DNA from: Nitrospinota bacterium
Lineage (GTDB): Bacteria; Nitrospinota; Nitrospinia; JACRGO01
Reading direction: 5' to 3'
NCBI GenBank assembly: GCA_016212295.1
Contig: JACRGO010000237.1
Location: forward strand, 215 to 64,214
DNA length: 64,000 nt
The position numbers were made by a program, and so were the translations under genes. Within the stretch, counting starts at the first letter, position 1; the number at the start of each line of letters is the position of its first letter. The notes under the pieces are model-generated. The model saw only the letters and a program-made list of their open reading frames with translations. It ran no database searches and was not told the DNA's origin. Positions 6,269-51,457 of the stretch are shown one piece after another.

Positions 6269-7564
6269 TCAGATTTTTCCCGCGTTGATCCTCTCCGCCG
6301 CAGCCTTGCCGCTTAAAAAGGCGTGGTCAAGGTTGAAGTAATTCCACTCGCCGTACCTTCCTATCGGAATAATATTATGTTCCTCCAGGAATTTCCTGAT
6401 CCCCTCCACGCAAGCGGTCCGGTTCTGGTCGAATACAATGTACCCGTACTCGATGTTCAAGTGGTCAGTTGCCAGGACCTCGCTTTCGCTTTTGATAAGC
6501 CCTGTCTTGACAATGTCGTTTATGGTCCGGCTGATTATGTTCTCCGCGTCAATCGGCTTGTGCTGGGAATGGGAAATTTCAGCGGTCAGGGAGGTAGTTC
6601 CCTCCGGGCAAACATAAGGAGACGCGTTGCTCTGTATGAACAGGCGTTGGAAGATGAATTTCTCTTCGGGATAATAGATCCAATGTTTGTCAGTGAGATT
6701 CTCCCGGTCGATGCCTATATTCACGCAATGGACTGATGTATGCCGCAGCAAATCCGCCATTTTTACGATCTCTTTCGGCGCGTCGATTATCTTCATCACC
6801 AAGTCCGGCAAGGGGATGGATGACAGCAGGAACTTGTATCCCATACTTTGGCCTGAGCTTAGCGTAATGCCTCGGTTCCTTACGTCGATTTCCCACAGCT
6901 CGGTTTTAAGGCAAAGGTCGGTATTTTTCAAACGTGGAAGGAAGGCGTCCATGAGCGACTGGCAGCCGCCGCGCAAGGGATAGCCGAATTGGGAGTTGGG
7001 GCCGTAACGGTCCTCAATGGAAGCCTTTGAGCCGCCGATAACGTCCTCAAGGCTGGGGACTTTCACCCTGTCTTCAATCCAGGAAAAATCCAAATGCTCC
7101 AGCGGCCTGGCCCATACCTTTTTGTTGTAAGGTCTCATGAAATGCTTTGCTATCCCGGCGCCGAAGTTTGCCTCTATCCATTCATCGAAGTTTTGGGGCG
7201 CGGCATTCCCCTTGTTTTCCAGCGCCGTTTTCAACCCCTGGATACATTCGTCTATGGTCTTTTGCGGCAGCCCGAACAGATTGCTCTGGAAGGGATATCT
7301 GGTGTAAACATCCTGGGAAAATATCCATGAGTTCCTTTCCTGGAAATGGTGGTTGCCAGGCAAAAGGTCCGCGAAGAGATTATTCGCGTACATATCCTTT
7401 GAAAAAAAGATATGCCCTGCATGGTCGAAGATAAAAAAGTCGACCTCCCTGGACCTCCCCAGTCCGCCGACGTTTTTTTCCTTTTCTATGAGAATACTGT
7501 TTTCCTTGAGGTGATAGGCGGCGCTAAGTCCGGCAGGACCGGCCCCTATTATTACAGTGCGCAT
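6269..7564 (-). CDS. FAD/NAD(P)-binding oxidoreductase (amine-oxidase or UDP-galactopyranose-mutase-like fold)
   Basis: 431 aa. It has an N-terminal 'VIIGAGPAGLSAA' dinucleotide-binding motif and a 'PYNKKVWARP' segment reminiscent of UGM-like flavoenzymes. Its 5' end overlaps the Maf-like gene. Confidence 0.65.
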   Translation of the reverse strand: MRTVIIGAGPAGLSAAYHLKENSILIEKEKNVGGLGRSREVDFFIFDHAGHIFFSKDMYANNLFADLLPGNHHFQERNSWIFSQDVYTRYPFQSNLFGLPQKTIDECIQGLKTALENKGNAAPQNFDEWIEANFGAGIAKHFMRPYNKKVWARPLEHLDFSWIEDRVKVPSLEDVIGGSKASIEDRYGPNSQFGYPLRGGCQSLMDAFLPRLKNTDLCLKTELWEIDVRNRGITLSSGQSMGYKFLLSSIPLPDLVMKIIDAPKEIVKMADLLRHTSVHCVNIGIDRENLTDKHWIYYPEEKFIFQRLFIQSNASPYVCPEGTTSLTAEISHSQHKPIDAENIISRTINDIVKTGLIKSESEVLATDHLNIEYGYIVFDQNRTACVEGIRKFLEEHNIIPIGRYGEWNYFNLDHAFLSGKAAAERINAGKI

Positions 7565-9301: not shown

Positions 9302-11323
9302 ATGCATGGAAATAAAAACATGGCTCTGGCTAAAGTCGAAAGAATTCCAAAAAGCCAGGTAGAAAGACGCGGTAAAAAACTTTCCCTTGGTTTCCGCATA
9401 GGTCTTTCCATAGGAATATTCCTGGTCCTGTTTATCATCAATTTCATTTCAGCTTTTTGGGTGATCAAGGAGCAAAAGGACGATGGCGTTATCATCAACC
9501 TTGCCGGAAGGCAGAGGATGCTGACCCAAAAATACGTCAAGGAACTTGCCATTGATCTCATCCCGGAACAAGTGCGGCAGGCGGTCCTTAAATCGGCCAG
9601 GATCGCCACGAGACAGATCCAAGAGGACCGCGCGCTTTACACTAAATCCGTTGTTGGGAAAATGAAAAAAGAGCTGCCGGGATTTTCCGCCAGCCAGAAT
9701 TACCACGAAATTTCAGGCGCGGCGCCCCTTCCCGCGACTTTCGTCCGGGAAGTTTCAGAGGCCATACACGGCTCCGGCCTTTATAGTTACGATCTTTTGA
9801 GCAAATGGAATATCAATCCGAAAAAGGGGCTTCGGGACCCCTTTGAGCAGGAAGCCTTCGAGGAACTCCTCAGGACCGGGACCGGTTCATTCTATCGTTT
9901 CATGGATCACGAGGGCCGGTATGTTTTGCGTTTCGCGACCCCTGACAAGGCTTCGTCCCAGGCCTGCACTGATTGCCATAACAACAGCCCTGAAAGCGCC
10001 AAAAGGGATTTTAAATCAGGTGATCTGATGGGCATTCTCGTGGTCACCATACCGGTAAGCGATGACATCCGCCTTGCCAAGGCCCTTTTCAGCCAAGGAG
10101 CGGATGAGGGCGGCGTGGAGCAGGCCGGCTCCAGCGGCGGCACGGCCAAGGTTTTTGAAATGACCCTTGGCGCCTTGATAAATGGAGGGAAGGCCCCTTT
10201 GGACTTGGCGATGACACTGTTCTCGGACCTGCCGTCCCCGCCCCGCAAGGAGATTGAGGACGCCTTGAAAAATGTTGACAAACTCTGGAAGCAGATGGTT
10301 TTGGACGCGGGAGAATTGCGGCGGGCGGAGGTCAACACTCTGCCCTATCTTAAGGCGTTTCAATCCATCCGTGAGGTCAATTTAAAGGCATTGGATGAGA
10401 TGAACCTCGCCGTGGACGCCTTGCAAAAAGAATCCGACCGGAAGGTTTTTCTCCTGAAAACCACCCAGACCACGCTTCTGGTCCTCTCGGTCCTCGTTTT
10501 CCTGTTCATTCTTTCTTATGTCTTCAGGGGAATAGTGAAGCCTTTAAATAATATTGTCAATTCCCTCAGGGAGAGCATGGAAAACGTTTCCGACGCCTCC
10601 CTGGATATCAGCCAGAACAGCCAGGAAACGGCCGAAGGGGCCTCAAGGCAGGCCGCTGCCTTGCAAGAGAGTTCCGCTTCCCTTGAAGAGATTGCCGCCA
10701 TGGCGAAGGAGAATTCCGGCAACGCCGGAAAGGCGGACAAGTTGGCCGCTGAGACAATGGAGGCCGCAAGGGACGGCGAGGGGGCCATGAACAGAATGAT
10801 CGAGGCCATCCAGGCGGTCCGTGAGTCAGGCGGGAAGACATCGAAAATAATTAATGTCATCAATGAAATCGCCTTTCAGACCAATCTTTTGGCCTTGAAT
10901 GCCGCGGTGGAGGCAGCCAGGGCCGGGGAAGCCGGAAAGGGATTCGCCGTGGTGGCGGAAGAGGTCAGGAACCTGGCCTCCAGATGCGCTGCCGCGGCAA
11001 GGGAGACAAGCCAAACCGTGGAGGACTCGCTTAAAAAGACCGAGACAGGCGCGCTGATTTCGGCGGAGGTGGCAAAGGCATTGGGAGAGATCAGCGGCCA
11101 CGCCAAAAAAGTGAATGAATTTGTGGGCACGATCGCCGAGGCTTCCAAGGAGCAGGCGTCCGGGATAAGCGATATAAACAAAGCGGTTTCCGAGATGGAC
11201 CAAGTTACACAGCAAGCCGCGGCTGGTTCAGAGAGATTGGCCCAGTCAGCCCTTGACCTGAAAAACCAGGCAAGCATCCTGGCCGGGGCCATTGCGGAAT
11301 TGGACCATCTTGTTCATGGATAG
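9302..11323 (+). CDS. methyl-accepting chemotaxis protein with periplasmic heme-c (CxxCH) sensor domain
   Basis: 673 aa. It has an N-terminal TM helix, a PilJ/NIT-like '[13 protein letters not shown]' segment, a 'CTDCH' c-type heme-binding motif in the periplasmic part, a second TM helix, a HAMP domain and the MCP signalling domain ('[32 protein letters not shown]'). Confidence 0.85.
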
Positions 11324-25559: not shown

Positions 25560-26200
25560 TTGGAGGAGAGTACTCACATGTCCAAGAAAGATATTCGCAA
25601 GTTTTGCGATAATTACAAGAGGCTTGAAAATAACGGGACATATCGATGGAAGATTCTCGACGAGACGCTACTTGGAATATGTGACGCATACCCTTCCCAT
25701 ACGTCTGCTGACGAAGTCTTTTCTAAGGTCGCCCTCATAAATCGCAGCTATCGCGCTAACCTACACTTCACAGGTAAAGATACTGAGGAAAAAATTGCGA
25801 AGGCATTTGTGAAAAAGGGCCTCGACAAAGTGCTTGCCCCCTAAATAGCATAACTGCATTAACAGCCGAAAGCCTGCCCACGTTGGTAAGAGCACATGGC
25901 AGTGTTGTCAGTATTGTGAAAGATGTCACAAGTCGGATTCACAACTCCTTCGCATCAAAGTATCTTCACTTTCATTTTCCGCGCGTCGTTCCCATATTTG
26001 ATAAATTCGCTTACAATGAATCATGGCGACTGGCTCCAGTGCCGAAAAACGAGTGGCAAAGGTGGAGCAATTTAATAAACTATAATTACGGAACTCATTG
26101 TACATCTGTAGTCGCCTTACTCACTGAGCTAAAGGCTAATGGGGTCAATTCGCCGAACATCAAATTGATAGATATACTGCTCTATGAAGGGATTGGCTAA
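25560..26200 (+). CDS. hypothetical protein(s) in AT-rich islet, two ORFs possibly one frameshifted gene
   Basis: ORFs 25560..25844 (94 aa) and 25883..26200 (105 aa, TTG start) are in different frames. The second frame stays open upstream across the junction, which is compatible with a single roughly 210-aa product broken by a frameshift. No recognisable family. Confidence 0.3.
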
Positions 26201-26360
26201 CCAGTTGACCCTTCGGTTCCTCCGCACTGTTTCGCTTCGTCGCCGAAGGTGGCTTGCGAACCAGGCGTTAGAAACAGGCCGCCAGCCGGGCTGTCAAGCC
26301 TGCGGCTTGACGCCCGCTTGTCGGCGGCTCAACGCCGCATTAAGTGTTTTGGAGCCGTCA
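26184..26360 (+). other. GC-rich, hairpin-dense leader element upstream of the DUF3800-like gene
   Basis: About 65 % GC in a roughly 35 % GC context. Nested stems include ccttcgg...ccgaagg and gtcaagcc-tgc-ggcttgac. The ORF-track translation here reads as nonsense. Confidence 0.4.
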
Positions 26361-27269
26361 ATGAATCAAGTTATTTTTGTTATGGACGAATCGGGGGCAA
26401 AGGGCTACTCCGACAACATTGAAAGCACGCCAGGTGAGCTTGGTGTAATGGCTGGCTATCTCATTCCAATCGACTGTTTGAGTTTGGTTAAAAGTGAGTT
26501 AGATGCAATTCGATCAAATTTTTTTTCAGAAGGAAAAATTCACATTACAGACTTGCTCCCGCAGCAGGAAGAATTACGAAAAAACATATTTGATTACTTC
26601 CTCCAAAGGAAAATATATTGGGTTTACGAAGCCGCCTATGTCCAAGGTTATTTTGAAAATGCCGATTTTCTTAATCAGCTAAACAAGAAAGCCCATGACT
26701 CAAGACGATCAAATATACAAGTGTCATGGAAGGAAACAAAAGAGCTTCTTCATTCCGAGCTATTTCAAGGAGCCTTCGGGAAGGCTTTAGCATTTTGCCT
26801 AGATTACGTAGGTAGACCATTCGAGCTCAGAGTCATTACCGACCGAACGGATAACTCAATCATTAAAAAATTTCAGAGCGAAGCCGACGCCCTCCTATCT
26901 GTGGGAAAAGAAAAAATCCACGAAACTACGGGCTTCAATAAAAAAACGAAGCAGATTGTAAGGGGAAGCATTGCAACAAAGGTTTCTGCTGACACAGATG
27001 CAATCGGAGATTTTTCTGGCATTACATATTCCATTGCTTGCGAAGACTCTTCTCTTACCCTTGCCGCCGATGTGCTAGTAAACAGCGCCCATTATCACCT
27101 TAAATTACTGCAATCAGAGAGTACTGGAGTTGCTCTCAATGTTGCATCCTCAATCTCTAATCACCAACTGAGTAGCTTGGTGTACGGGGCATGGGACAAT
27201 ACGGAAGGAAATTATTTTGCTGATGCCATATTTATGCACCCCACGCAAAAGAGCAGAGACAACACCTAA
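26361..27269 (+). CDS. DUF3800-like protein
   Basis: A likely true start ATG at 26361 has GGAG 10 nt upstream. The N-terminus 'MNQVIFVMDESGAKGY' matches the hallmark 'iYiDESG' motif of DUF3800 proteins. The gene is AT-rich. Confidence 0.5.
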   Translation: MNQVIFVMDESGAKGYSDNIESTPGELGVMAGYLIPIDCLSLVKSELDAIRSNFFSEGKIHITDLLPQQEELRKNIFDYFLQRKIYWVYEAAYVQGYFENADFLNQLNKKAHDSRRSNIQVSWKETKELLHSELFQGAFGKALAFCLDYVGRPFELRVITDRTDNSIIKKFQSEADALLSVGKEKIHETTGFNKKTKQIVRGSIATKVSADTDAIGDFSGITYSIACEDSSLTLAADVLVNSAHYHLKLLQSESTGVALNVASSISNHQLSSLVYGAWDNTEGNYFADAIFMHPTQKSRDNT

Positions 27270-27849
27270 CCTTACATTCAAGAGGGACAGGCCAGAAGCG
27301 GCCTGCCCCTCAATTTAACGTTAGGCATACGCTCTACCTATGGTACGAAGCGCGCTATAATTGCTTCATTAGTTTTGAATGGAGTCAGATCATGAACACA
27401 CAACTCTTATACATAAGGACGATATTCCTACATATTCTTTTGGGTCCTTCATTGCACGCGGCGGCGACATCTTGGACGGCTGGAATCTCCTTCTCAGAGA
27501 CGGCCCCAAGAAGGTTCACGGCGGGCTTGTCATTGTTCAAAGCGATACGCCGCATTTCATTCTTGACCTCCTCGTAGGCATCCACGCTGCAAACGACTCA
27601 CAGCAGACTGGGTCGGATTCATCGTTCAACGCCGTGAAAGCAGTGACGAGCCAGGGGCCACCGGCCCTCTCCGCGTCGACCCTTAGGAAAAAGAGGTGGC
27701 TACAGTTTTGGAAATAACCATGCCGGGCGCAATGGCATGCGGTCAAATGACGGAATGGTAAAGGGGTCAGAGGTTTGCAAGATCACATTATTTTGCCTCG
27801 TTGCCGAAACGCACACAATGTGTTAATCTCTTAATTTTGGAGGAGAGAA

Positions 27850-44535: not shown

Positions 44536-44746
44536 TTTTCACTAACCCGGACAAGCCGGAACTAAAATAAAATTCCGATGTATTCAAACATTTGATGATA
44601 CCTCTTTTGGACCGCCGATTCCATGCCGCGCCATGGAACCCCGGCGCAGGATTGTGCCCCCGCAGGAAGAGGTCTGGAGGTTGATATTTTACTTCACAAT
44701 TTTTTTCACATTTTTAAAAATTGAGCAGAAGTGGTTTCGCAACCCA

Positions 44747-44791
44747 GGTCGGCGCGAAAGGATTTGAACCTCCGCCCCACCTGCTCCCAAG
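44747..44791 (-). tRNA. tRNA-Pro(TGG)-like 3' half fragment (anticodon loop to 3' end), a probable integration-site remnant
   Basis: The minus strand reads 'CTTGGGAGCAGGTGGGGCGGAGGTTCAAATCCTTTCGCGCCGACC'. This has a T-arm GGTTCAAATCC, an acceptor 3' strand and an anticodon loop CTTGGGA. No matching 5' half is present upstream. Confidence 0.5.
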
Positions 44792-45437
44792 GATATGGGG
44801 ATGAAAGGGTCATTGACAACTATCGTTACGAGGTATATTTTATATTCACTTGTTGCCGCGTTATTGGCTGGATAAATGCTGAAAGCCCGGCTCCTATAGA
44901 TTGGAAAATAGGATGGAGAATTAGAAAATGGGAGCCATCCTTCAATTTGAGTTGCTTCATTGGGAGGAAGAAATAAATGGCAATTAACAAAGCAATAGAA
45001 GAAATAAGAAAAACCCGTCATGAAATCTCTTCAAGGCACCATCACAACACTAAAGAATTATTGGAGCACTATAAACAACTGGAAAGCAAATATTCGGACA
45101 GGATTTGCGACCGGACAAGGGACAGCAAAATAATCCAGAGGACACTAAAAAGCAGCGCGGTTGATTAAGGAGCAAGCTTCGTAATCCTCAGCCGGTTCTC
45201 CTTCTCTTTCCTCGATGGCTTTCAGGTCGGATAAATATTCAAAAGTCCGTTGGGCCTAAAAACTTTGAAAATGAGCTGAAATAATTAAATCCTAAATTAT
45301 GCGGATTCGGCATAATGGTAAAACAGATTATGTTACATGGAAAATCATGGCGGACTTTAATGAATAAATGATTAACAAGCCTTGAAAGCAATAGAAGTGT
45401 TTCTGAATAAATAAACAAAGAGTATGCATAAAAATAA

Positions 45438-46055: not shown

Positions 46056-46212
46056 CAAAGAAACAGTTGCAGGAGTCAGACATTGATCTGGAACAAAAAT
46101 GGGCTTGCCTAACAACCGCCTCCACGGCAGACGCTTGACTGTCATGCGCCTTGCAAAGTTCCGCAAGCCTTACGCCAGCCTGCGCTTGTGAGGCGAGCGT
46201 TAGATTTCAAGG

Positions 46213-47067
46213 ATGCCAATGGCTATTCACTGGTCAGAATCCGAAGTCGAGGCAGCAGTTGAAGACTACTTCAACATGCTCCGCCAGGAGTTGACCGGTC
46301 GCAAATACAACAAGACCGAGCATCGCCGGGCATTAATGGAACATCTGAACAATCGGTCAGAAGGTTCGGTTGAACTGAAGCATCAAAATATCAGCGCCGT
46401 TCTGATCGAGATGGGTATTCCATACATTGACGGATACAAGCCACGTTCAAACTACCAGCGCACACTACTGCCCGCAGCGGTGTCTGATTTCCTCGCCAAT
46501 CACCCCGAGTTTCACGCGCTGTTCCAAGAGGACTCCGAGGTCGCGCCATCCATCCCATCGGTTGCGGATTTTCTCGCGGCGATGGAAGCTCCGCCAAGGC
46601 CGGAAAACAAGGGCAGCTCAACGATCGCGGAGACTCAAGCTATCTACAATCCCGCCGGTGTGAACTACCTGGAACGGGAGGCGCAAAATCATTCACTAGG
46701 AGACGCCGGGGAACAATTCGTCATCAATTTTGAGCGGGCCAGGTTAATCCACGCCGGGAAGGAATACCTCGCGGATCAAATTGAGCAAATATCAGTCTCG
46801 GTCGGCCCTTCCGCTGGGTTTGATATCCGGTCGTTTGAAGAAAACGGAACAGACCGCTTTATCGAGGCAAAAACCACGAAATACGGCAAGAGCACGCCAT
46901 TCTTCGTTACTCCCAACGAGTTGGATTTCTCACGGGAGAATGCAACCCGGTACTTTCTATACCGTGTCTTCAAGTTCCGCGCGGAACCACGCTTGTTCAC
47001 TTTGCATGGCTACTTGCAGGATCAGTGCATACTCCAGCCGTCGCAGTACTTGGCGAAGCCAGCGTGA
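46213..47067 (+). CDS. COG3183-N-terminal-domain plus DUF3883 (restriction-endonuclease-like) protein
   Basis: The N-terminus 'EAAVEDYFNMLRQELTGRKYNKTEHRRALMEHLNNRSEGSVELKHQNISAVLIEMGIPYIDGYKPRSNYQ' matches the non-catalytic N-domain of HNH-type predicted restriction enzymes. The C-terminal half 'GDAGEQFVINFE...GFDIRSFEENGTDRFIEAKTT...FFVTPNE...YFLYRVF' fits DUF3883. Confidence 0.55.
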   Translation: MPMAIHWSESEVEAAVEDYFNMLRQELTGRKYNKTEHRRALMEHLNNRSEGSVELKHQNISAVLIEMGIPYIDGYKPRSNYQRTLLPAAVSDFLANHPEFHALFQEDSEVAPSIPSVADFLAAMEAPPRPENKGSSTIAETQAIYNPAGVNYLEREAQNHSLGDAGEQFVINFERARLIHAGKEYLADQIEQISVSVGPSAGFDIRSFEENGTDRFIEAKTTKYGKSTPFFVTPNELDFSRENATRYFLYRVFKFRAEPRLFTLHGYLQDQCILQPSQYLAKPA

Positions 47068-47129
47068 AATCTGGCAATGCGTTGCAACTGGCGTATTGAC
47101 ACGATTTGATCTTTTTTATAACATGAAGG

Positions 47130-47714
47130 CGAAAATATATCCCCCCTGCTTCTTCGGAAGCAGGGCGCGAGGCCGGGGATGCCGATTTCGATACCCTCAT
47201 CGCCTGCGCCTTCAACTATGACGCCCATTCCTCGGAATTCGATAAACTGGGCCGGATTCCGGTGCTCAAGGCCAGGATGAACGCCGACCTGCACATGGCA
47301 GGCGACCTCAAGAACACCGGCAAGGGGAACCTTTTCGTCATCTTCGGAGAGCCGGACATTGACATCCTCGACGCCGGGGACGGGCAGGTGCGGGTGAAGA
47401 TCAACGGCGTGGATGTCTTTCATCCCAACACCGGAGAGATTCGCAGCGACGGCGCGGAGGGGATCGCCTGCTGGTTCATCGACACCGATTATAACGAAGA
47501 GAGCTTCTTTGTCCGCCACGCCTATTTTCTCGGGGCCAACGATCCCTACAAGTCCCTCAAAACCACCCTCAAGGCCGAGATCAACGAAGAAGCCTGGGGT
47601 ACCCTGAACAGCGACACCTCCCGCCCCTTCCGGAAACCAAAATCCGGTCGGATCGCGGTAAAGGTGATCAATCATCTGGGGGATGAGGTGATGAAGGTGT
47701 TTCGTCTGAAATGA
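47130..47714 (+). pseudogene. orphan C-terminal fragment of a DNA methyltransferase (type III Mod / type IIG-like)
   Basis: The frame opens right after an in-frame TGA with no start or N-terminal catalytic domain. The C-terminal 'EAWGTLNSDTSRPFRKPKSGRIAVKVINHLGDEVMKVF' resembles the conserved tail of adenine-specific Mod-type methyltransferases. It is GC-rich, unlike its neighbours. Confidence 0.4.
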
Positions 47715-47744: not shown

Positions 47745-49258
47745 GTGTTCACGGGAGTGTCTGCCATGCGCCTGACTATCGAACAGCTCCAAAGCATTAT
47801 GAACTCCACGGAAGGGGAGCATTTCGAATTCAAGGAAGCCAAAACCAAATTTCATTTTGAGAAGCTCCTTAAATATTGTGCTGCTTTAGCGAATGAGGGT
47901 GGTGGGGAAATGGTTCTCGGCGTTACCGACAAACGGCCAAGACATGTGGTTGGAACTCAGGTGTTTTCTCAACCGGAACGGACGAGAAGCGGGCTTATTG
48001 AAAAGCTGCGTTTAAATATCAATTTTGATGAAGTCCAGCATCAAAATGGGCGCGTCCTGATTTTTCACGTTCCCTCTCGCCCCGTCGGAATGCCGATCAA
48101 GGCGGAAGGCGTTTACTGGGAACGAAAAGCCGACAGCTTGGTTCCTATGTCTGAAAATCGGCTTCGTGAAATCTTCTCCGAGGCAGGGCATGACTTTTCA
48201 GCCCAGATATGTTCAGGCGCAACAATAGCTGATTTGATCCCGGCGGCCATTGAAGATTTCCGGAACCGGTGGCTTATCAAGTCAAACAATCCCGGTTTAT
48301 CCACGTTGAGCCATGAACAGCTTCTTTCCGACGCCGAAGCGGTTGTTGATGGTTATCTTACCTATGCCGCGTTGATCTTGTTCGGAACAAAACAAGCTCT
48401 GGGCAAGTGTTTAGCCCAATCCGAGGTGGTTTTTGAATATCGGTCTTCCGATGCCTCAGGTCCAGCCCAGCATCGAGAAGAATTTAGAGAAGGGTTTTTC
48501 AGTTATTATGAAAAATTATGGAAGTTGATTAATTTGCGTAATGATATCCAGCACTTTCAGTCAGGTTTATTCCTGCTGGATATCCCGACTTTTTCGGAAC
48601 GGCCAGTTCGAGAAGCTGTCTTAAACGCCGTCAGCCACCGGGATTATCAGCTCGGAGGCAGCATCTTTATTCGCCAATATCCAAGGAAGTTGGTGTTTGA
48701 GAATCCAGGCGGATTTCCGGTTGGCATAAATCTCGATAATATCCTTGATCGCCAGTCGCCGCGCAATCGCCGCATCGCGGATATTTTTGCAAAATGTGGT
48801 CTTGTGGAGCGTTCCGGTCAAGGCATGAACCTGATGTTTGAGCGAAGCATTCAGGAAAGCAAAGCAATACCTGATTTTTCCGGCACTGATCAGTACCAAG
48901 TGATATTGAAAATCGCCTTCAACCTCGATTACAGACACTAGTGTCAAAAGGCGTCATCGAGCGCTTTGGCCGTGGGCGCGGTGTTAAATACATTCTCAGC
49001 CGTCAATATTATCAGATGGTAGGGAGTAGGGGTGTATATACGAGAAAGAAGGGATTGGATCGTGAAACAAACAAGACCTTACTTTTGAAACATATCGTTG
49101 AAAATTCCGAAACCGGAAGCCGCCTCAAGGAACTGAGACAAGTGCTTCCTTCGTTATCAATGCCACAAGTGCAAACCCTGCTTAGAGAACTTAAATTAGA
49201 AAGAAAAATTCATAAAACTGGAGCTACACGAGCGGCTCTTTGGCATGCCAATCTTTAA
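47745..49258 (+). CDS. Schlafen/AlbA_2-domain ATPase-like protein (COG2865 family) split by a frameshift at 48941
   Basis: ORF 47745..48941 has an N-terminal AlbA_2-like 'EGEHFEFKEAKTKF...' and a HATPase_c_4-like middle. ORF 48941..49258 (GTG start overlapping the TAG) carries 'GVIERFGRGRGVKYIL' and a wHTH, which normally forms the C-terminus of the same polypeptide. Confidence 0.6.
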
Positions 49259-49384: not shown

Positions 49385-51457
49385 ATGGAATTTCGAATAG
49401 CCGATACCTTTACCGACAGCCTTTCCAAACTTAACGGAGAGGAACAGAAGGCCGTCAAGACCACCGCCTTCGACCTCCAGATGAATCCAGCCAATCCGGG
49501 GATGCAGTTTCATAAACTGGACAGGGCCAAGGACGCCAATTTCTGGTCAGTCCGTGTGAGCCGGGACATCCGATTAATTGTCCACAAAACAAAATCCAGC
49601 CTCCTGCTCTGCTATGTCGGGCACCATGATGACGCCTATCACTGGGCCGAACGGCGAAAACTGGAAACGCACCCGAAGACCGGCGCCGCGCAGATGGTTG
49701 AAGTTAGGGAGACCATAAAAGAAATCACCATCCCCAAATATGTTGAGGTTGAGCAACCCGTACCTTCCAAGCCCTCCCTGTTTTCGGATGTGTCCGACAA
49801 TGAACTCCTGAATTACGGTGTGCCGTCCGAGTGGTTGAACGATGTGCGGAAAGCCAATGAGGACAGCCTATTGGAACTGGCCGGCCACTTGCCAGGCGAG
49901 GCAGCCGAGGCGTTGCTCAATCTGGCCACCGGGGTGACGCCGCAAATCGCACAGCCGGGTTCCACTGAAGTTGATCCCTTTGACCATCCCGACGCCAAGC
50001 GGCGGTTCCGGGTGATGAACAATGTCGAGGAACTTGAACGTGCCCTGGAATATCCCTGGGAGAAATGGACTGTCTTTCTTCACGCCGCGCAACAGGAGTA
50101 TATAGAACAGGATTACACCGGCCCGGCAAGGATTTCCGGTTCCGCTGGCACTGGCAAGACTATTGTGGCCCTCCATCGAGCGGTTTTTCTTGTCCGTTCC
50201 AACCCTGAAGCCAGGGTGTTGCTCACCACATTCTCCGATACCTTGGCGAATGCACTGAGAACAAAATTGAGACGCCTGATCTGCAACGAACCGAGTCTGG
50301 GCGAACGTCTGGAAGTTTACGCCATGAATCAAATTGGCCTCAGACTCTATGAACTGAATTCTGGACGTCCACGGATCGCATCCCGAAAAGATATCAAGCA
50401 ATTTCTTGAAGAAGCCTCCATTCAAATAGAAGGACACAAGTTTACCCTGCATTTCCTGATGACGGAGTGGGAGGAGGTTGTTGACGCATGGCGGTTGGAA
50501 ACCTGGAAGGCGTACCGCGATGTTACGCGACTGGGAAGAAAAACGCGTCTGCCGGAGAAACAACGTGCCATGCTCTGGTCTATTTTTGAACGTGTGAGGT
50601 CCAATCTGAAGACCCGGAATCTTGTAACATACTCCGCCTTGTTCAGTCGTCTGACGTCTCAACTGGGTAAAAGCAAGCACCCGCCTTTTGATTTCGTCGT
50701 TGTGGACGAGGCACAAGATGTTAGTGTGGCTCAATTGCGGTTTCTGGCTGCCCTTGGGGCCAGACGAAAGGACAGCCTTTTTTTTACCGGAGACCTTGGG
50801 CAGAGGATTTTCCAGCAACCCTTCTCCTGGAAGGAACTTGGCATTGATATTCGCTGGCGTTCCCGCACACTGAGAATTAATTACCGCACCTCACACCAGA
50901 TCAGAATACAGGCTGATCGGTTGTTGGGACCTGAGTTGTCCGACGTGGACGGCAATGCAGAAGAACGGCGCGGTACAATTTCTGTTTTCAACGGGCAAAA
51001 TCCAACTATTATGATTTTAGATAGTCAGAAAGAAGAAATTAAAATGGCCGGCAAATGGATATCGGACCGTATAGGGGAAGGCTTAGCGCCAAGCGAGATA
51101 GGCGTTTTTGTCCGTTCCGAAGCGGAACTGGACAGGGCGCGGACCGCTGTTAAAAAAACGGGCTTGCCCTATAAGGTTCTCGACGAGAAGGTCGAAACAA
51201 CCGCCGGAAATATTTCCATCAGTACCATGCACCTTGCCAAGGGCCTGGAGTTCCGCGCCGTTGCTGTGATGGCCTGTGATGATGAGGTTCTTCCCTTGCA
51301 AGAAAGAATCGAATCCGTAGCGGATGATTCCGACCTGGAAGAGGTTTACAACACGGAACGTCATTTGCTTTACGTAGCCTGTACCCGGGCACGGGACTAT
51401 CTTCTTGTAACAAGTGTTGATCCGGCATCGGAATTCATTGATGATTTGAAGATGTGA
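49385..51457 (+). CDS. UvrD/Rep-like SF1 helicase with N-terminal RelE/ParE-like domain
   Basis: 690 aa. The N-terminal roughly 90 aa 'FWSVRVSRDIRLIVHKTKSSLLLCYVGHHDDAYHWAE' fits the RelE/ParE toxin-fold consensus. The rest has Walker A 'GSAGTGKT', a DEAQD box 'VVVDEAQDV' and C-terminal UvrD motifs 'ISTMHLAKGLEFRAVAVM...VACTRARDYL'. Confidence 0.7.
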   Translation: MEFRIADTFTDSLSKLNGEEQKAVKTTAFDLQMNPANPGMQFHKLDRAKDANFWSVRVSRDIRLIVHKTKSSLLLCYVGHHDDAYHWAERRKLETHPKTGAAQMVEVRETIKEITIPKYVEVEQPVPSKPSLFSDVSDNELLNYGVPSEWLNDVRKANEDSLLELAGHLPGEAAEALLNLATGVTPQIAQPGSTEVDPFDHPDAKRRFRVMNNVEELERALEYPWEKWTVFLHAAQQEYIEQDYTGPARISGSAGTGKTIVALHRAVFLVRSNPEARVLLTTFSDTLANALRTKLRRLICNEPSLGERLEVYAMNQIGLRLYELNSGRPRIASRKDIKQFLEEASIQIEGHKFTLHFLMTEWEEVVDAWRLETWKAYRDVTRLGRKTRLPEKQRAMLWSIFERVRSNLKTRNLVTYSALFSRLTSQLGKSKHPPFDFVVVDEAQDVSVAQLRFLAALGARRKDSLFFTGDLGQRIFQQPFSWKELGIDIRWRSRTLRINYRTSHQIRIQADRLLGPELSDVDGNAEERRGTISVFNGQNPTIMILDSQKEEIKMAGKWISDRIGEGLAPSEIGVFVRSEAELDRARTAVKKTGLPYKVLDEKVETTAGNISISTMHLAKGLEFRAVAVMACDDEVLPLQERIESVADDSDLEEVYNTERHLLYVACTRARDYLLVTSVDPASEFIDDLKM

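Follow-up and report, generated by a model that had tools for sequence, protein, structure and literature searches.

A probable integron-cassette nuclease gene beside the remnant of a type III methyltransferase gene in a Nitrospinota genome

Introduction

A 2013 paper described DUF3883 as a novel domain with a restriction-endonuclease fold (PMC3710099), and in HmaA of Halomonas meridiana the D/ExK/E residues of this domain, now named NOV_C, are needed both for DNA nicking and for defence (PMC11232893). We analysed a stretch of 64,000 nucleotides (nt) from a Nitrospinota bacterium (assembly GCA_016212295.1, contig JACRGO010000237.1, positions 215 to 64,214 of the forward strand; hereafter "the window", with positions counted from its first letter) that carries a gene for a NOV_C protein and, downstream of it, the 3' end of an adenine-specific DNA methyltransferase (mod) gene. 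A first-pass annotation, made from the letters alone, had offered two explanations for this pair: a decayed restriction-modification (R-M) system whose nuclease partner survived, or a type IV-like standalone nuclease that displaced part of an older R-M locus. We conclude, with a probability of roughly 0.75, that the locus holds two adjacent, unrelated defence elements, one an integron nuclease cassette and the other the dead remnant of an island with the gene order Res-Mod-slot-UvrD.

HmaA is a protein of ~1190 amino acids (aa) with a Snf2 helicase motor and is usually encoded with HmaB/HmaC (PMC11232893), whereas the nuclease of the window has 282 aa, a small helical N-terminal domain, no ATPase and no partner genes. 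PD-T4-1 (E 8.2e-20) and TmtA/Tiamat (E 6e-12) share a NOV_C-type C-terminal domain with the window nuclease but match only its residues ~130–260; their N-terminal parts are unrelated, and they belong to different families. By contrast, no structural difference separates the window nuclease from PDC-S36, a family with the same length, the same two-domain layout and the same single-gene status. PDC-S36 is a computational defence candidate with a predicted anti-phage role, and no paper mentioning the family by name was found in the literature.

Three further groups of systems bear on the locus. Type IV enzymes (McrA/ScoMcrA-like HNH enzymes, Mrr and McrBC) resemble the window nuclease in standing alone, without a methyltransferase, whereas the window nuclease has no recognisable modified-base reader and its dependence on modification is putative. 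Integron cassettes are rich in compact anti-phage genes and include many streamlined nuclease-fusion defence cassettes (bioRxiv 10.1101/2024.07.02.601686). These are likewise compact, single-gene, nuclease-type and bounded by attC sites, and the study that describes them makes no mention of DUF3883, PADLOC or PDC names. Unlike the cassettes of sedentary integrons, the cassette of the window is stranded, with one complete and one truncated attC and without an integrase. Finally, the family to which the mod fragment belongs shares with the EcoP15I Mod (4zcf) and the Mod of 6k0w the type III catalytic blocks and a paired ResIII/RE_endonuc Res; the window, by contrast, holds only a C-terminal extension, with no catalytic domain and no Res.

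Results and discussion

A stand-alone nuclease gene of the PDC-S36 family

The longest open reading frame (ORF) at the locus runs from 46213 to 47067 on the plus strand and encodes 284 aa in the ORF list, confirming the 284-aa protein with a DUF3883 C-terminal domain of the first-pass annotation. Translation likely starts at the second ATG, at 46219, giving 282 aa, since an AAGG stands 6 bases before this ATG, a suitable Shine-Dalgarno spacing, and since homologues have 282 aa. The product is 100% identical to the NCBI entry 'MAG: DUF3883 domain-containing protein [Nitrospinae bacterium]'. It consists of an N-terminal helical domain and a C-terminal NOV_C/DUF3883 domain of the PD-(D/E)xK type. 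Residues 166–263 match Pfam NOV_C (PF13020, formerly DUF3883; E 1.5e-19) over model positions 1–90 of 91, scoring 70.2 bits with the cut-off at 22.1, and residues 3–283 match positions 3–279 of 280 of the PADLOC model for PDC-S36 (PDLC05008; E 2.9e-105). Close homologues number in the thousands, at 70–83% identity and nearly all of 282 aa, and are spread over Gammaproteobacteria, Desulfobacterota, Verrucomicrobiota, Bacteroidia and other groups. The coordinates of the features of the locus are collected in Table 1.

Table 1. Features of the nuclease–mod locus and its surroundings (window positions)
Feature	Position	Strand	Basis or remark
Stand-alone predicted nuclease gene, PDC-S36 family	46219..47067	+	Pfam and PADLOC profile matches
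Canonical integron attC, 99 nt	46107..46205	+	Boxes and bottom-strand fold
Truncated attC of the nuclease cassette	47069..47130	+	5' half homologous to relatives' attC
Perfect 9-bp hairpin with TTCG loop (CCCTGCTTC-TTCG-GAAGCAGGG)	47148..47169		On the junction of cassette remnant and Mod remnant
3' remnant of type III mod gene, last ~185 of ~930 residues	47158..47714	+	PADLOC MTase_III match
AlbA_2 (Schlafen-type) + HATPase_c_4 slot gene	47745..49258	+	Profile matches
UvrD-like helicase, 690 aa, third gene of the parent island	49385..51457	+	Profile and homology
Upstream ORF, 205 aa	45438..46055	+	No family match; G+C 32–35%

The candidate catalytic residues are E167, D204, E218, K220 and E236. 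All five are invariant in an alignment of 28 sequences (A1; 44–82% identity), and in a wider alignment of 50 sequences (A4; 38–82% identity) K220 is invariant and the other four are kept in at least 90%. D204, E218, K220 and E236 correspond to the D/ExK/E residues in HmaA's NOV_C domain, and the D...ExK...E site of the window nuclease is intact. An AlphaFold model built on a diverse alignment reached a predicted local distance difference test score (pLDDT) of 93 and a predicted template modelling score (pTM) of 0.88; an earlier run on a shallow alignment, with a pLDDT of 57.6, was unusable. The NOV_C domain has the restriction-endonuclease-like alpha/beta fold. A PDB sequence search with the nuclease returned noise only.

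The N-terminal ~130 residues matched no Pfam or NCBIfam model. The domain (residues 1–140) is nevertheless widespread, occurring in 2612 representative clusters, and we surveyed its partners in the 150 closest of these. NOV_C is the commonest partner, found in 68 of the 150 clusters by Pfam and in 82 by phmmer, whereas HNH domains occur in one or two (HNH_2 in P0337, E 8.6e-14, and a weak HNH match in P0363). The first-pass annotation had labelled the domain COG3183-N and described it as typical of HNH-type predicted restriction enzymes; such fusions do exist, but they are a minority pairing in this set of near relatives. Within the same 150, one cluster joins EVE, the N-terminal domain and NOV_C (P0272), and another joins Mrr_N, the N-terminal domain and a McrB-like AAA_5 (P0316). 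Judged by domain architecture, these partners, which include modified-base readers, McrB-like motors and nucleases of several types, are the ones found in type IV-like restriction. The domain itself, which is helical and partly homeodomain-like, probably binds DNA, and its breadth and its recurrence with HNH, EVE, Mrr_N and McrB-like domains make it worth defining as a family.

The nuclease gene lies between integron cassette signals

Upstream of the nuclease gene lies a canonical attC whose R'' box reads GCCTAAC and whose R' box, GTTAGAT, occupies 46199–46205, with the recombination point G/TT (slash marking the point of exchange) between 46199 and 46200. Its bottom strand folds into an imperfect hairpin with a free energy (dG) of -42.5 kcal/mol, and in shuffled sequence sites as stable per nucleotide turn up at a rate of about 0.03 per window. 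The R' box ends up 13 nt before the nuclease ATG. In the window and nine relatives (L006, L008, L009, L010, L012, L019, L021, L030 and L037), homology of the nuclease locus begins at G/TTAGAT or at a near variant (TTATAT, TTAGAC or TTAGAG), and the sequence before the boundary G differs in every genome compared. Because homology starts after the G and unrelated sequence stands before it, this boundary is a G/TTRRRY cassette junction, and we regard it as better evidence for a cassette than the attC fold.

Two of the relatives place the gene in recognisable arrays. In L037, a Halioglobus genome, an integron integrase gene lies on the opposite strand 8 kilobases (kb) upstream of the nuclease homologue; its product matches NCBIfam TIGR02249 with 441.8 bits against a cut-off of 265 and is 47% identical to a sequence that we take to be IntI1. 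The same locus carries a family of attC repeats, with copies 0.6–5 kb apart and one ending just before the nuclease gene. L009, from Limnobacter olei, has an attC array upstream of its homologue. The nuclease gene of L037 (10001–10799), the only one seen in a true integron array, is frameshifted, with residues 19–143 and 144–284 in different frames.

Downstream of the nuclease gene, the window is homologous to the relatives from 47069 up to about 47107–47130. The relatives' downstream attC starts with ATCTAAC and is ~100 nt long in L037 and L030 (attC sites range from 56 to 114 nt), whereas the corresponding R''-like box of the window reads ATCTGGC. The L'/R' half of the cassette's own attC was not found downstream, so that the cassette lacks a complete attC of its own. 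The attC call rests on stability per nucleotide, the homology boundary, the repeat families in real arrays and the integrase of L037. On these signals, the nuclease gene appears to be an integron-type gene cassette, and the cassette is a stranded remnant outside any active integron. No island integrase was found at 51–62 kb, where the genes are core and flagellar-type.

PDC-S36 is at least partly an integron cassette, which accounts for its scattered, partner-free spread across phyla and adds the family to the defence cargo of integrons. A link between PDC-S36 and integron cassettes was not stated in the literature that we searched.

The tail is the 3' end of a type III mod gene

The methyltransferase frame is open from 47127 to a stop at 47712–47714, a span of 194 codons. 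It is directly preceded by a TGA at 47124–47126, in the tail's own frame and not in that of the nuclease ORF. The first possible starts within it are a GTG at 47262 and then an ATG at 47278, which leaves the first 35–40 conserved residues of the tail without a start codon in the window. The tail matches positions 782–982 of 983 of the PADLOC MTase_III model (PDLC03632; E 9.8e-101) and is ~90% identical to the C-termini of many proteins named 'adenine-specific DNA-methyltransferase'. At the DNA level, homology to mod genes starts at 47158–47166 and ends at 47704, with 80–83% identity across distant taxa. The G+C content of the tail is 56–58%, against ~52% for the nuclease gene. What the first-pass annotation had described here, an adenine-specific Mod-type C-terminal tail behind an in-frame TGA, without a start codon and in GC-rich DNA, was borne out in each particular.

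The annotation had also proposed looking for the missing catalytic half in other frames upstream and in related genomes. The N6_N4_Mtase catalytic domain was found neither in the tail ORF nor in the six frames of the window, and searches of all frames of the 64 kb with Mod and Res queries from three related loci (E up to 10) found neither the N-terminal part of Mod nor Res. The missing half does occur in the related loci, which we surveyed as a set of 80 metagenome loci recovered with the tail (L043–L122). The rest of Mod lies directly before the tail in 73 of the 74 loci that have at least 400 nt upstream. A Res of ~1020 aa (ResIII + RE_endonuc) is present in 29 of the 30 loci with at least 6 kb upstream, and a UvrD-like helicase in 33 of the 36 with at least 6.5 kb downstream. 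The helicase, of ~690 aa, is at least 55% identical to that of the window and starts 3 to 4952 nt after mod. Intact Mod ORFs, of 903–1002 aa, are found in 50 of the 80 loci.

In its pattern of conservation this Mod family follows the usual type III design, the catalytic blocks and the C-terminus being conserved and the middle variable, and the upstream part of the L039 Mod matches positions 74–759 of PDLC03632. Solved type III Mods (6k0w and 4zcf) match the catalytic part only, so that the tail represents a C-terminal extension specific to this family. Between mod and the helicase gene, and at times between res and mod, lie varying genes of defence type. These comprise IetA-like ATPases, AlbA_2/HATPase_c_4 proteins, DUF1828, HicA, HEPN/NTase pairs and, in one locus, another kind of NOV_C protein. 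No description of this Res-Mod-slot-UvrD arrangement was found in the literature searched. We know of no conserved UvrD-like third gene or slot in classical type III systems, and the arrangement could anchor searches for new defence systems.

As judged by homology, the window keeps the 3' end of such an island, comprising the tail, an AlbA_2 gene in the slot and the helicase gene. The helicase is 65–77% identical to the one that follows this Mod family elsewhere (72% to that of L001 and 65% to that of L039). Missing are res and the first ~745 codons of mod, in whose place the window has cassette DNA. A Mod fragment without the catalytic domain cannot methylate, and we consider that the fragment is best read as a non-functional remnant.

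The nuclease and the Mod remnant as unrelated neighbours

The two genes lie on the same strand, ~90 nt apart, which would suit a single former R-M operon whose methyltransferase decayed while the nuclease, its restriction partner, survived. The surveys of both families point the other way. In 35 genome loci with a nuclease homologue, tblastn over distances of up to 10 kb detected neither Mod nor Res, and neither AlbA_2 nor a UvrD-like gene, and all-against-all clustering of ORFs within ±5 kb in 36 loci found no conserved neighbour of the nuclease, the only ORFs that clustered being those that overlap the nuclease gene. Conversely, none of the 80 Mod-family loci carries a PDC-S36-type nuclease like that of the window. 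The nuclease partner of this Mod family is Res, and integron cassette signals flank the nuclease gene of the window. A former partnership could also draw on L083, where a 396-aa protein (6374–7564) whose C-terminal domain is NOV_C-like and shares 41% identity over 98 aa with that of the window nuclease is encoded between an intact 928-aa Mod and a UvrD-like helicase; however, its N-terminal half is unrelated, and it lies downstream of mod rather than upstream. We regard a common operon as extremely unlikely, and the decayed R-M system with a surviving nuclease partner, the first of the two earlier explanations, is not upheld by the linkage data. The nuclease and the Mod remnant appear, from gene content across the surveyed loci, to be unrelated neighbours.

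The second of the earlier explanations fares better. Its architecture agrees with ours, in that a mobile gene stands where res and 80% of mod belong. The type IV-like character that it gave to the nuclease is suggested by the co-occurrence of the N-terminal domain with EVE, Mrr_N and McrB-like AAA_5 domains, together with the lack of a linked methyltransferase. Overall, the observations of the first-pass annotation were sound; it had overlooked the integron attC upstream and the parent Res-Mod-slot-UvrD island.

The juxtaposition could in principle be an assembly chimera, two genomes having been joined at a conserved sequence. The contig comes from a metagenome-assembled genome, the tail DNA is strongly conserved across distant taxa, and the G+C content shifts along the island, all of which would suit such an accident. 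An independent assembly argues against it: Logan contig L042 (run SRR12113407) is 100% identical to the window from 46140 to 47690, a span of 1551 nt that includes attC and the nuclease gene as well as the junction and nearly all of the tail. The chimera is made unlikely by this reproduction of the junction, and the break marks where the conserved stretch begins instead of falling within it, unlike what repeat-mediated joining would give. We assign this explanation a very small chance indeed.

Origin of the truncation

On our reading of two unrelated elements, the res gene and the catalytic 80% of mod were deleted or replaced, with the AlbA_2 slot gene and the helicase gene remaining. The order of events may have been a deletion followed by insertion of the cassette, or a single recombinational replacement. 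Both elements lie in a decaying phage-defence island of ~7 kb (about 44.6–51.6 kb) in a Nitrospinae genome. It is flanked by FliK-like and O-methyltransferase genes (41.6–44.5 kb) on one side and by DUF2284 and radical-SAM genes (51.8–53.6 kb) on the other.

Alternatively, the truncation might be the work of an integron integrase that placed the cassette at a secondary site within mod. Integron cassettes can insert at non-att secondary sites, and the junction does fall within the cassette's own attC. After such an insertion, however, the attC should persist to G/TT, whereas here the L'/R' half is gone and the R'' box has been altered by mutation. An integrase is absent from the window, and ~50 nt of unrelated sequence, including the hairpin of Table 1, separate the attC remnant from the start of Mod homology. 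Because the attC ends well before G/TT and because of this unrelated sequence, we consider secondary-site insertion very unlikely. On the minus strand, the same hairpin is followed by a T-rich stretch.

Several observations weigh against the reading of an integron cassette beside a dead remnant. No IntI-like sequence was found in the 64-kb window, even at E up to 50, and just one complete attC lies in the region. Our home-made attC scan, with strict boxes alone, did not rise above shuffled sequence (9 real vs 12 shuffled), and with relaxed boxes it was far too noisy. The fold match of the N-terminal domain is weak, and the literature search found no experiment on PDC-S36. On the Mod side, the tail shows no decay and is preceded by a promoter-like site, while the reading assumes complete loss of function.

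Of the 185 aligned tail columns, the 134 in which at least 95% of 120 homologues agree were used to score conservation of the tail. The tail agrees with the consensus in all of these but one, which is located at the junction itself, and this count of deviations is the same as that of a typical intact gene. Two readings fit this absence of decay, a recent truncation or a module still under constraint; we think that the truncation is probably recent.

Constraint would be expected if the C-terminal module of Mod were a functional stand-alone protein, translated from ATG 47278 or GTG 47262 and working with the AlbA_2 or UvrD-like genes. Consistent with such a role are the long open frame with its single deviation, the promoter-like TTGACA-17-TAACAT at 47096–47124 (10/12 matches, within the truncated attC), the position of the C-terminal region outside the part that matches solved type III Mods, which would make it a separate module, and the linkage of the helicase across the parent loci. 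A second orphan tail also exists, in L062 (423–1052), with its own ATG (MTNAFFDRPILNGPEFG...) and a breakpoint ~50 nt upstream of that in the window. However, orphan tails amount to one in 74, the other 73 being the ends of full-length Mods, and in the window the first 35–40 conserved residues would go untranslated. A recent deletion would leave the tail just as undecayed, and the whole family is so highly conserved that the branch of a single lineage has little power to show decay. We therefore consider a functional tail unlikely, and a non-functional remnant remains our preferred reading of the fragment. In L062, A+T-rich non-coding DNA stands before the tail and ORFs of 610 and 631 aa follow it, the second distantly UvrD-like; the contig ends 422 nt upstream of the orphan tail.

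The top 120 database matches to the tail are all shorter than 340 aa, and we considered whether short tail proteins form a family of their own. Those checked turned out to be contig-edge fragments or nonsense and frameshift pieces of full genes (L001, L003, L039 and L123), which also counts against a stand-alone tail. On long contigs, an in-frame stop replaces a Tyr codon at ~9620 in the L001 Mod gene, and the Mod genes of L003 (~9900–10000) and L039 (~10000) are frameshifted. These three loci were chosen for their short ORFs, so that no frequency of interruption can be derived from them, and some of the interruptions may be long-read assembly errors.

Predicted function of the nuclease

In the mechanism that we propose, the N-terminal domain would bind or sense DNA and the NOV_C domain would nick or cut it. 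Most probably the nuclease defends the cell as a modification-dependent (type IV-like) or infection-triggered enzyme and not as one member of an R-M pair. Since it has no cognate protection, it would have to recognise a feature absent from host DNA or stay off until infection. A modified base is one possible feature, as in type IV enzymes.

The locus itself is routine defence-island archaeology: the nuclease adds to an already catalogued candidate family, and the tail beside it is a pseudogene fragment. In a bolder and distinctly improbable version, the ~185-residue C-terminal module of Mod would be autonomous and would work with the UvrD-like helicase, Res-Mod-slot-UvrD would be an unrecognised three-component system derived from type III, the module would survive under selection, and the N-terminal domain of the nuclease would represent a new module for sensing DNA that type IV enzymes also possess. 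If this were true, the restriction and methylation parts would have been replaced by an integron-borne, methylase-independent nuclease while the module persisted.

Other features of the island and the window

The slot gene of the window reads as an ORF of 398 aa (47745–48941, likely starting at ATG 47767) and a 105-aa ORF resembling a winged helix-turn-helix protein (48941–49258), which overlap by one base. The end of the shorter ORF resembles the C-terminal winged helix seen in full-length relatives, of which the 464-aa L040 protein is one. The two look like one gene of ~500 aa split by a frameshift, and the split gene would be either a pseudogene or an assembly error. The first ~90 residues of the UvrD-like helicase give weak, sub-threshold HigB/ParE-like matches.

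Upstream of the complete attC, the TAA stop of the 205-aa ORF sits within a GCCTAAC box, and this ORF is probably the cargo of a preceding cassette. The 0.8 kb between an O-methyltransferase gene and the 205-aa ORF hold no long ORF. This stretch carries only a 63-aa ORF (44977–45168) and, on the minus strand at 45165–45260, the apparent C-terminal end of a small antitoxin-like protein, which suggests further gene debris.

The minus strand at ~44745–44790 resembles the 3' part of a tRNA, with a T-loop (GGTTCAAATCC) followed by an acceptor strand (CGCGCCGA). Neither ARAGORN nor Rfam supported a tRNA fragment here; the sequence stands at the left margin of the low-G+C island and might be what is left of an old attachment site.

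At 27264–27326, 19 kb from the complete attC and directly after an ORF with no Pfam match (26184–27269), lies another attC-like site, 63 nt long. It has the boxes ACCTAAC...GTTAGGC and a bottom-strand dG of -37.2, and it is the most stable per nucleotide of all attC candidates; it could be a lone attC or a terminator hairpin.

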